Origin: Candidatus Saccharimonadota bacterium | GTDB lineage: Archaea; Nanobdellota; Nanobdellia; Pacearchaeales; GW2011-AR1 | Direction of reading: 5' to 3' | NCBI GenBank assembly: GCA_041659445.1 | Contig: JBAZYG010000002.1 | Location: forward strand, 189,869 to 221,868 | DNA length: 32,000 nucleotides | In this document: positions 13,328-32,000 of the stretch, in pieces | How the letters are laid out: every line of letters begins with the position of its first letter | Position numbering within the stretch: position 1 is the stretch's first letter | The notes under the pieces: model-generated | What the model saw: only the letters and a program-made list of their open reading frames with translations | Database searches by the model: none | Told to the model about the DNA's origin: nothing | Position numbers and translations under genes: made by a program

Positions 13328-13400
13328 ATGGGGCTACCCGGATTTGAACCGGGGTCGTCAGGTCCCAAACCTGAAAGGCTACCAGGCTACCCCATAACCC
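13328..13400 (-). tRNA. tRNA-Pro (anticodon UGG)
   Basis: Reverse complement reads GGGGTTATGGGGTAGCCTGGTAGCCTTTCAGGTTTGGGACCTGACGACCCCGGTTCAAATCCGGGTAGCCCCA. Acceptor GGGGTTA/TAGCCCC, anticodon arm TCAGG-TTTGGGA-CCTGA, T arm CCCGG-TTCAAAT-CCGGG. No encoded CCA. Confidence 0.9.
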
Positions 13401-13445
13401 CATTTTAAAAATAGAGCTATCGGTATTTATAAAGCTATTCGATTA

Positions 13446-26947: not shown

Positions 26948-27280
26948 TTATTTTTCTTTGTTATTTTTTAAAAAAGTTATAAATCCTTCTTTAAATTTTT
27001 CATTGTCTGGAATCCAAGCTTCAGGAAGTTCATTAAGAGAATATGTATCACCAGAATATATCGGAGGCGATAAATTATAACTTTTTATATGTATTAATTT
27101 ATGTTTAGAATCATCTGATTCGTTGAAGATTATTTCATACATATAATAATCATTTAATTTTATTTCTTCTTCTGAAAAATCTTTTACTTTGCTTTTCCAG
27201 TTATATGCATTTCCTTCTCCCATATATATGACTTCATTAAAATTACAAATCACCAATAATTTAGATTCTTTATTTTCCAT
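26948..27280 (-). CDS. ORFan operon gene 4: hypothetical protein (110 aa)
   Basis: Open frame, preceded by a 72-nt AT-rich gap that may hold an internal promoter. No family recognised. Confidence 0.5.
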   Translation of the reverse strand: MENKESKLLVICNFNEVIYMGEGNAYNWKSKVKDFSEEEIKLNDYYMYEIIFNESDDSKHKLIHIKSYNLSPPIYSGDTYSLNELPEAWIPDNEKFKEGFITFLKNNKEK

Positions 27281-27352
27281 ATTTCTTATTATAATTTTTG
27301 ATATTTAAAAATTGTTATACTAAAAGAATCAATCTTTTTCTATATTTTGGAA

Positions 27353-27568
27353 TTATTTTGTAGAATAAATTTCAAAGTAATATTTCTTATCTTCTTCAGA
27401 ATAGTTTATATGGATAAGATAATCTCTATGTTCAGTTTTTCCAGTCATTTCAGATTTTTCTAAATCATTAAGGCCTTCTATTGTAAGTGCGAGATCCAAT
27501 CTACCTTTGTACTCGCCACTCTGTAAAGCATTCTCCAAATCAAATTTTTTTAGGCTTTTTGCTTTCAT
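27353..27568 (-). CDS. ORFan operon gene 3: hypothetical protein (71 aa)
   Basis: Start moved from 27586 to ATG 27568, which forms a TAAAATG junction with the upstream stop at 27570-27572. Confidence 0.45.
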   Translation of the reverse strand: MKAKSLKKFDLENALQSGEYKGRLDLALTIEGLNDLEKSEMTGKTEHRDYLIHINYSEEDKKYYFEIYSTK

Positions 27569-27569
27569 T

Positions 27570-27767
27570 TTATATTTTTGCTTCAAGTTTTCCTATTCTT
27601 CCTTTAGAATCTTTGGAAGTTTCAAATACTATTTTAACAGGCTTTGTTCCGTCATCTAAAATCACTTCTACTTTGTGAATATCTTTGTTTCCTTCATAAC
27701 TGTTTTTTAAAAGTGCATAAAGGTCTTCGATTGTTGCATAGTCTAATTTATAATTTGAATTTTCCAT
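27570..27767 (-). CDS. ORFan operon gene 2: hypothetical protein (65 aa)
   Basis: Open frame with TAAAATG junctions on both sides. Confidence 0.45.
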   Translation of the reverse strand: MENSNYKLDYATIEDLYALLKNSYEGNKDIHKVEVILDDGTKPVKIVFETSKDSKGRIGKLEAKI

Positions 27768-27768
27768 T

Positions 27769-27957
27769 TTATTTTTTTTGATTAAGATTATATTCTTTTA
27801 AAAGTTCAATTATAACTTTATTTTGATAATATAATGCCTTAATAGCATCAATTACTCCATCATGATACATTGTCATTTTATTTTTTTCTGATTGTTTTAT
27901 TAGCGTTTCTGCTTCTTTCAAGGTTTTTTCAAGTTCATTTATTCTTCCTTCTTCCAT
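27769..27957 (-). CDS. ORFan operon gene 1: small coiled-coil protein (62 aa)
   Basis: First gene of the operon. TATA-like TATATAAATATTT lies about 40 nt upstream on the minus strand. The start is only about 75 nt from the 23S processing stem. Confidence 0.45.
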   Translation of the reverse strand: MEEGRINELEKTLKEAETLIKQSEKNKMTMYHDGVIDAIKALYYQNKVIIELLKEYNLNQKK

Positions 27958-28031: not shown

Positions 28032-28086
28032 AAAGTAGTGGAAAGTACAACAAATTTTAAAATTTATTTTATTTAAAGACAATCTT
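28032..28086 (-). other. 3' half of the 23S rRNA processing stem (two helices)
   Basis: 28032-28049 is the exact reverse complement of 30932-30949 (18 bp). 28073-28086 is the exact reverse complement of 30914-30927 (14 bp). Confidence 0.8.
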
Positions 28087-28109
28087 TTTGAAATTAAAAA
28101 TTTCAAATT

Positions 28110-30910
<2,801 letters not shown>

Positions 30911-30913
30911 AAT

Positions 30914-30949
30914 AAGATTGTCTTTAAGACGTGTACTTTCCACTACTTT
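30914..30949 (-). other. 5' half of the 23S rRNA processing stem
   Basis: Complementary to 28032-28049 and 28073-28086 (see that feature). Confidence 0.8.
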
Positions 30950-30969
30950 TGTCATCGAGTATTTTACTC

Positions 30970-31188
30970 TCAAATAGATCCAAGATTTTGCTCTTGAACC
31001 TCTTCAATTTTCTTTGAATATGACTTTTTTATAAATGAATAATTTCCTGGATGTTCATCATTTAATTTTTTGCAAATTCCTTTTTCTATTTCATTTGCAA
31101 TGTGGGCTTCGTTAGGGTTATACTGGATTTCCAATTTAATATCTTCTTTTCCCTTTATTGAAATTGTATATTTATCTATATTTTGCAT
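30970..31188 (-). CDS. 72-aa hypothetical protein encoded inside the 16S-23S spacer (between tRNA-Ala and the 23S processing stem)
   Basis: A 219-nt open frame in AT-rich DNA, where stops should be frequent. It is on the same strand as the rRNAs. AAGGA lies about 10 nt upstream of the ATG. Amino-acid composition is typical of this genome. No family recognised. Confidence 0.5.
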   Translation of the reverse strand: MQNIDKYTISIKGKEDIKLEIQYNPNEAHIANEIEKGICKKLNDEHPGNYSFIKKSYSKKIEEVQEQNLGSI

Positions 31189-31267
31189 TTTATTTTTTCC
31201 TTGATTTATTTTGTCTTAAAAGAAAAGATTTTTTTCAGTGTTTCGCGAAGCCTATGCACAATGGCAA

Positions 31268-31384
31268 TGGACCTGTCGGGAATTGAACCCGAATCTCATC
31301 CGTTCTTTGGAACCAAAGGACGTTACGAAAATGAAGTTTTCAGTTCCGTGCAAGGGACGTATTCTGCCGTTGGACTACAGGCCC
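31268..31384 (-). tRNA. tRNA-Ala (anticodon UGC) with a roughly 46-nt intron at the canonical 37/38 position
   Basis: Reverse complement reads GGGCCTG TA GTCC AACGGCA GAAT A CGTCC CTTGCA [CGGAACTG...CCAAAGAA] C GGATG AGAT TCGGG TTCAATT CCCGA CAGGTCC A. The acceptor, anticodon (CGTCC/GGATG) and T stems all pair. It sits in the usual archaeal 16S-23S spacer location. Confidence 0.8.
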
Positions 31385-31470
31385 ATAATATCAAGTGCCC
31401 CTCGTCATTTTTAATCTTTTCTAAAGACGAAAAAGTATGTAGAATTAACTATTGAAGTTTTAAATATTAT

Positions 31471-32000
31471 AGGAGGTGATCCATCTGCAGGTTCCCCTAC
31501 AGATACCTTGTGACGACTTAACCTACCTTGTCATGCTAAGGTTCTCCTTCGAAAAGTTTCACCATGACATAACTCGGTTGGTTTGACGGGCAGTGTGTGC
31601 AAGAGACAGTGACATATTCACCGTTCGCTGATAACAAACGATTACTACGAATTCCAGTGTCACGAGGCTGAGTTTCAAACCTCGATCTAGACTAAGATGA
31701 ACTTTAAGAGATTAGCTTCACTTTTCAGTGTTGCATCTCGTTGTATTCACCATTGACGCGCGCGTGTCGCCCAGGGGATTCAGGCTGTACTCACCTAACG
31801 TAGCCCGCACTTTCATCTGCGTTACCACAGCAATCTGTATATTGTACACATAGTAAATATACACGCGGGTCTTGCCTGTTACCTGATTTAACAGGTCACC
31901 TCACGGCACAGGCTGACGTCGGCCATGCAACTCCTCTCAGCGTGTCAGGTAAGCCCTTTAGACTGACCTTCATTCTGCTGTCGCTCCTGGTGAGGTTCAC
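31471..32000 (-). rRNA. 16S ribosomal RNA, 3' roughly 530 nt (partial, continues beyond the window)
   Basis: The minus strand ends ...AAGTCGTCACAAGGTATCTGTAGGGGAACCTGCAGATGGATCACCTCCT (anti-SD). It also contains CTTGCACACACTGCCCGTC (the 1390-1407 region) and TGCATGGCCGACGTCAGCC (the roughly 1050 region). Confidence 0.9.

Follow-up and report, generated by a model that had tools for sequence, protein, structure and literature searches.

The DNA examined here, a window of 32,000 nt, belongs to a 708 kb genome with 27% GC that is held in two contigs, the overlapping ends of which close into a circle. RuBisCO was found in this host genome and ATP synthase was not, which is the trait set given for Pacearchaeales (bioRxiv 10.64898/2026.05.13.725050); the host is a member of Nanobdellota and probably belongs to that order. 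The window carries the 3′ part of a 16S rRNA gene, tRNA-Ala(UGC) and a 23S rRNA gene, and between tRNA-Ala and the 23S gene, on the same strand as the rRNA, lies a 72-aa ORF (Table 1); the whole 16S-23S spacer is 550 nt long. The order of the genes, the two processing stems and the bulge-helix-bulge-like motif of the canonical euryarchaeal 16S-tRNA-Ala-23S operon have all been retained. What departs from that operon is a predicted protein gene in the spacer and, ahead of tRNA-Ala, a promoter-like site that is conserved among relatives. Both stems are intact, the outer stem of the 23S (30949-30932) pairing with the 23S 3′ flank, and the bulge-helix-bulge-like motif reads TCGA-TGA at 30958-30952, with TCRATGA conserved in relatives. 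Beyond the 23S 3′ flank, a string of small ORFs (26948-27957, minus strand) is preceded by a T-rich tract and by a site resembling a TATA box.

Table 1. Features of the 16S-23S spacer and its flanks, in window coordinates
Feature	Position	Strand	Details
3′ part of 16S rRNA gene	31471-32000	minus	Rfam RF01959; continues on contig C1 (28-nt overlap)
16S processing stem, 3′ strand	31435-31449	minus	pairs with the 16S leader on C1 (duplex prediction); CTACATAC core conserved in relatives
Promoter-like site	31405-31424	minus	BRE and TATA-like ATTAAAAA (31415-31408); 31 nt before tRNA-Ala; PWM score 8.3
10-bp inverted repeat flanking the tRNA-Ala unit	right arm 31221-31230, left arm 31422-31413	minus	from the sequence
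tRNA-Ala(UGC)	31268-31384	minus	Rfam, ARAGORN; 46-nt intron at about 31301-31346
36-nt repeat	31231-31266	minus	directly 3′ of tRNA-Ala
Translation start context (predicted)	31189-31202	minus	AGGA at -13; AATAAA directly 5′ of the ATG
72-aa ORF	31188-30970	minus	ATG start, TGA stop; about 55 core codons and about 17 probable run-on codons
Conserved ITS2 RNA module	30970-31023	minus	overlaps the 3′ end of the ORF; TCAYRYTCA at 31023-31015
23S processing stem, 5′ strand	30932-30958	minus	cofold, duplex; partner at ~28032-28049
23S rRNA gene	28097-30920	minus	Rfam RF02540

Two elements of the tRNA-Ala region vary or recur elsewhere. The 46-nt intron is lacking from the DNA contigs that a second sample gave, and one minor contig of the first sample lacks it too, so that it is strain-variable; tRNA-Ala introns are also patchy across the family. 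The 36-nt repeat has four copies in the genome, all at tRNA genes, and the three others (C1:105065, C1:419771 and C1:419814) adjoin tRNA-Lys and tRNA-Leu. At two places the repeat adjoins a duplicated tRNA end (the 5′ end of tRNA-Lys and the 3′ end of tRNA-Leu), and similar pieces were seen in the relatives G003 and G016. No REP-type tyrosine transposase, a possible source of the repeat, was found in the host genome.

The first-pass annotation of this DNA had described a 72-codon open frame between tRNA-Ala and the 23S helix, and the frame was confirmed, together with its stop 20 nt from the outer stem of the 23S and an AAGGA (31202-31198) 9 nt upstream of the ATG. It had also judged, by a rough estimate, that a frame of this length was unlikely by chance, and this held as well, since an ATG-started ORF of at least 72 codons on the ORF strand arose in just 0.2-0.5% of shuffles of the 319-nt segment; when any start and either strand were allowed, ORFs of at least 72 codons appeared in 2.6-4.6% of them. 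For the 55 codons that precede the conserved RNA module, the chance estimated from shuffles was 0.7%. The codon-use score of the ORF was 0.21, against 0.26 ± 0.12 for genes and -0.28 ± 0.12 for shuffles. AATAAA is the most frequent final hexamer ahead of promoter-less genes in the host genome (37/345), and AGGA at -10 to -16 is modestly enriched upstream of such genes. One contig from a second groundwater study spans 30700-31300 with a single difference from the window and holds the ORF, which is thus not an assembly error. Pieces of 85-94% identity occur in Logan contigs of two sequencing runs (X3 and X4). On this evidence, the ORF is predicted with high probability to be a genuine gene for a small protein.

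The 3′ end of the ORF overlaps a conserved RNA element. The TCAYRYTCA motif was detected in 103 of 129 spacers, where 2 were expected, and the module folds (-13.2 kcal/mol) into a YTCA/TGAR hairpin at the motif followed by a 10-bp hairpin (31001-30976). Covariation was seen in the YTCA/TGAR hairpin, with T-A in 41 cases, C-G in 16, T-G in 4 and a mismatch in 11. Pairing of TCAYRYTCA with the 16S leader was considered and rejected, as no consistent, specific partner was found and the motif pairs locally instead. In 25 of the 45 ORF-bearing spacers, a gap of 0-17 nt separates the stop of the final ORF from the motif, while the host frame continues for 54 nt from the start of the motif onward. 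The last 17 codons of the host ORF are therefore probably a run-on over the RNA module. An inverted repeat noticed in the first pass does exist (31223-31213 with 30930-30921), but it is probably incidental and was rejected as a bracket around the ORF, because most of the arm at 30921-30930 pairs with the 23S 3′ flank in a helix of 14 bp free of mismatches; the second arm borders on the 10-bp repeat that flanks tRNA-Ala (31230-31221 with 31422-31413) and overlaps it.

The spacers of relatives were then compared, although these family genomes are kin and hence statistically non-independent. In 118 linked spacers with tRNA-Ala, 88 sense-strand ATG ORFs of at least 60 aa were observed against 4.6 expected from shuffles; on the antisense strand the figures were 18 and 10.8. 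Sense ORFs of this size were present in 55 of the 118 spacers. The expectation that archaeal rRNA spacers hold only tRNA-Ala and processing signals thus fails in this family, about half of which carries ORFs. dN was lower than dS in all nine homologous pairs of spacer ORFs (e.g. 0.17/0.61 and 0.33/0.58), in alignments that were protein-guided and so favour low dN. The host ORF gave a dN of 0.60 and a dS of 0.88 over 53 codons against a same-genus relative, where the protein-guided alignment likewise biases dN/dS downward and where part of the likeness is due to shared DNA. The dN/dS check that had been put forward thus indicates purifying selection in the family pairs, the two values for the host ORF itself lying closer together.

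We propose that these genes occupy a variable slot, which would span from the 3′ end of tRNA-Ala to the conserved RNA module that precedes the processing stem of the 23S. The occupants are diverse proteins that sorted into small clusters; profile-profile links among the clusters were weak (best probability 30%), and no single superfamily was established. Occupancy of the slot is labile, with 27 changes on a tree of 106 genomes against a mean of 33 for shuffled labels. The long spacers of two relatives (L080 and L032, about 3 kb) hold larger genes, including in L080 a 480-aa membrane protein that looks glycosyltransferase-like by eye only, and the spacer of L131 encodes a 109-aa protein that looks MazG-like, again by eye only.

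One of the clusters, A1, has the same position and strand as the host ORF. Among 401 genomes A1 is confined to ITS2, bar two marginal matches away from rRNA, and it lies within one clade of 49 genomes to which the host genome also belongs. An A1 profile built without the host ORF matched it at E = 6.9e-4 among 102 spacer proteins, and with a wider A1 profile it ranked 5th of 2001 against its own shuffles (p about 0.002), to which a shared DNA motif contributes. In a genome-wide A1 profile search of the host genome, the ORF fell below threshold. Its protein is shorter than the A1 family by about 15-20 residues of strands. With moderate confidence, the sequence comparisons would make the ORF a divergent, shortened member of A1. 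The A1 profile returned five proteins, with lengths equal to those of the input members.

Upstream start codons were observed at the spacer ORFs of sixteen relatives (L003, L004, L031, L043, L045, L048, L051, L055-L057, L063, L070, L085, L090, L104 and L138), where an ATG stands 7, 13 or 16 nt before the ORF and always in the same other frame. This frame often encodes M-E-x-x-E-D and is open for 17-46 codons beyond the main start, which exceeds controls (Mann-Whitney p 6e-7); codon shuffles gave a combined value of 1e-12, for kin that are non-independent. This pattern points to an overlapping upstream ORF under selection, or else to a frameshift, in these relatives. The overlapping upstream ORF is absent at the ORF of the host genome. 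The possibility that the host ORF arose by fusion between the upstream ORF and the main frame of the relatives was rejected, as its N-terminus models as a beta-hairpin like that of the main frame; both other frames close within 5 codons, which also speaks against a fusion.

Profile searching of the 72-aa product, which had been suggested earlier, returned no significant Pfam match (nothing below E 0.08, and none to homing endonuclease or IVS families). The spacer proteins of ten relatives gave nothing significant in Pfam either. A search of 5.8 billion proteins retrieved only the ORF itself, and a search of 1.84 billion representatives retrieved the ORF and six long proteins through summed short stretches, which were judged spurious. 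Taken with the Pfam and A1 profile results, these searches gave no homolog of the ORF from any setting other than the spacer. No paralog was found in its own genome by tblastn; the best match (E 0.2) lies inside a GTPase gene and was taken as chance. rRNA introns encode LAGLIDADG homing endonucleases, and 23S IVS encode four-helix proteins. The host ORF resembles these in being encoded in a part of the precursor that processing removes. It differs in lying outside the mature rRNA by the Rfam bounds and in having no Pfam match, and the modelled protein is neither a nuclease nor a helix bundle. The earlier statement that it is no intron homing endonuclease was upheld on the same grounds, that is, by its location outside the rRNA genes and the lack of a family profile match.

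Structure prediction gave a pLDDT of 0.79 and a pTM of 0.67 for the ESM Atlas model, and a poor pLDDT of 57.7 for the AlphaFold2 model, which has a beta-hairpin followed by a helix. No significant match was obtained with Foldseek against PDB and viral structures, in the ESM Atlas, or in a PDB sequence search. The ORF probably encodes a small binding protein of alpha+beta type that plays an accessory part. Among the six top structural matches to the model are four chains from ribosomes and two from archaeal 50S subunits, taken by us from chain name and length to be eL20/LX (Z 4.3-5.1, rmsd 2.3-3.0, 52-59 residues aligned; the next unrelated match has Z 4.0). The ORF protein is similar in size to eL20/LX (PF01775) and has a predicted beta-beta-alpha arrangement. 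None of 151 genomes of the family and 121 of the order yielded a match to PF01775, whereas all four archaeal controls did. One could thus imagine that the rRNA operon encodes an eL20-fold protein on the 23S precursor, standing in for eL20 or aiding assembly, with an mRNA made by tRNA and rRNA processing and tuned in many relatives by the overlapping upstream ORF; on these modelled matches we give this only a slim chance. That the product is a diverged RNA-binding protein of the eL20 (LX/L18a) fold, made together with the 23S and replacing eL20 or aiding large-subunit assembly, appears marginally slimmer still. A Z of about 5 falls under the usual background best of 7-8, and it was obtained with a model of pLDDT 58. 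In sequence, the ORF protein showed no similarity to eL20/LX, either with a profile of eL20 from Nanoarchaeia (probability of 0.4% in hhalign, E of 1.5 in hmmsearch) or with the PF01775 sequence profile and its conserved GSxHK motif, and its occurrence is patchy, half of the relatives having no spacer ORF. The family representative differs in strand count, with additional strands, and its match reaches no more than Z 3.5. Most of the class, moreover, lacks eL20 in any case (found in 37/201 genomes).

It may also be asked whether the frame is a decaying or silent remnant, i.e. an inserted or inherited gene that is transcribed but untranslated, or simply a chance frame. The fast turnover of the slot, the missing strands relative to the A1 family and the lack of a close homolog in the two very large protein searches would all fit such a remnant, as would a frameshifted ORF in the slot of one relative. 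This is the closest metagenomic relative by spacer motif (L171, Ga0272443_10004630), where a ~65-codon frame is frameshift-broken near a G run. The frameshift there may be a sequencing error or decay, and the broken frame ends just ahead of the RNA module. Against a remnant stand the shuffle probability of 0.2-0.7%, the typical codon use, the commonest start context, the confidently predicted fold and the near-identity in the second sample. We therefore consider a remnant or a chance frame improbable.

With a PWM trained on the host genome's own promoters, matches to which were sought in AT-rich DNA, the start of the ORF scored -22, and no promoter-like site was found in the host ITS2, where no position scored above 3. 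Across the family, 3 of 51 first ITS2 ORFs had an own-promoter match, compared with 48% of free-standing genes. Expression in the host is strongly leaderless: for 71 of 325 free-standing genes, the TATA box begins exactly 29 nt upstream of the start codon, and the genome has few Shine-Dalgarno motifs. The ITS1 site before tRNA-Ala has a modest score in the host and overlaps the 10-bp inverted repeat. A match at 30-36 nt before tRNA-Ala was present in 60 of 110 family spacers, and ITS1 matches totalled 71 against 9.6 expected at any position. The site occurs in spacers with and without an ORF, and its spacing is that of the host genome's other tRNA promoters. In six family genomes (L032, L069, L076, L080, L155 and L157), tRNA-Ala and the promoter-like site are inverted together within the spacer.

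The first-pass annotation had offered, as an alternative, that the ORF region provides a separate 23S promoter, and in the host this was not supported, given the low ITS2 scores; yet of 45 relatives with an ORF, 12 have a strong promoter match 60-124 nt before the RNA module, compared with 1 among the 46 that lack an ORF (3.9 expected). These matches, and the spacers of up to 3 kb in some genomes, would fit an independent gene with its own promoter, or a region that gives the 23S a promoter apart from the 16S on the way to unlinked rRNA genes. For the host, with an ITS2 that nowhere exceeds 3 and an ORF start at -22, this is the least probable of the explanations that we weighed, and a very remote one. 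rRNA genes are termed unlinked when 16S and 23S are more than 1500 bp apart (Brewer et al., bioRxiv 10.1101/705046). Some relatives resemble this state, with spacers over 1500 bp, several genes and a promoter before the 23S, whereas the host spacer of 550 nt is linked by the 1500-bp rule and has no ITS2 promoter.

Another possibility is that the gene is real and made only from the precursor that starts ahead of the 16S, the ITS1 site serving as a signal for RNA pairing or for inversion instead of as a promoter. Every one of 80 16S leaders has a strong promoter match, and in the operon of Haloferax volcanii a start-site map places no start site at tRNA-Ala (PMC4983044). For three compact relatives in which tRNA-Ala is inverted, the spacer offers no sense promoter and the 23S must be reached by read-through; therefore, 16S read-through to the 23S must also occur in the family. 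The overlap of the host site with the 10-bp inverted repeat would also fit this explanation. On the other hand, the fixed spacing of 30-36 nt in 60/110 spacers equals that of other tRNA promoters, and the site inverts with the tRNA, an antisense tRNA-Ala needing its own promoter. Transcription from the 16S promoter only is accordingly judged unlikely, if somewhat less so than a remnant.

The reading that we consider probable, from the sequence evidence, is that of a real, dispensable and fast-evolving gene in a variable spacer slot, which would be co-transcribed with tRNA-Ala and the 23S and freed by processing. A transcript that starts at the ITS1 site and runs through tRNA-Ala, the ORF and the 23S would carry the ORF as its second part, with additional transcription by read-through from the 16S promoter. 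Since the ORF has no promoter of its own, its mRNA is most likely released from a longer precursor. The earlier suggestion that pre-rRNA processing frees the mRNA is thus likely to stand, with the qualification that the likeliest nearby promoter is the ITS1 site and not only the 16S promoter. tRNase Z performs tRNA 3′ cleavage, and its cut at the 3′ end of tRNA-Ala would create the 5′ end of the mRNA. The 3′ end would be set by the splicing endonuclease at the 23S bulge-helix-bulge, as cleavage at bulge-helix-bulge rRNA stems is part of archaeal processing (Juttner et al., PMC7038931). Translation would begin from the A-rich start with its weak AGGA, like that of other promoter-less host genes, several of which lie directly behind a tRNA.

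Promoter-less ORFs were indeed found 10-21 nt after tRNA-Cys, tRNA-Gly and tRNA-Pro in the host genome, so that protein genes led by a tRNA are a recurrent feature there. One promoter-less ORF of 75 aa (13306-13079, minus strand) begins 21 nt after tRNA-Pro (13328-13402). The E. coli thrU-tyrU-glyT-thrT-tufB unit is an example of a tRNA-led polycistronic transcript. The host arrangement is alike in that a promoter-less gene follows a tRNA, the processing of which would free the mRNA, and, computationally, there is a promoter-like site before tRNA-Ala and none before the ORF. Unlike the E. coli units, the host unit lies inside an rRNA operon and continues into the 23S. The cut at the bulge-helix-bulge of the 23S would determine its 3′ end, and in place of a housekeeping gene it carries a labile ORFan. 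It is likely, as far as the sequence can tell, that the ORF works like a tRNA-led polycistronic transcript set inside an otherwise canonical archaeal rRNA operon.

As half of the relatives have no such gene, the product is probably not a core part of rRNA maturation; since their slot is empty and the occupants of the others differ, it would rather be an accessory protein placed on a strong stable-RNA promoter. In the literature searched, mainly non-subscription texts, no description of protein genes in such archaeal rRNA spacers was found, and the family-wide ORF count, the promoter-like site of tRNA-Ala, the overlap with the RNA module and the upstream ORF are added here. Annotation usually passes over the spacers of rRNA operons, which are regarded as non-coding. 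With about half of this large archaeal family carrying selected small spacer genes, a set of small proteins has been missed. If expressed, these genes would have mRNAs with both ends made by tRNA and rRNA processing enzymes. The conserved, invertible unit of promoter and tRNA-Ala, together with the extra 23S promoters in some ORF-bearing relatives, may outline testable stages by which a normal operon could become unlinked rRNA genes.
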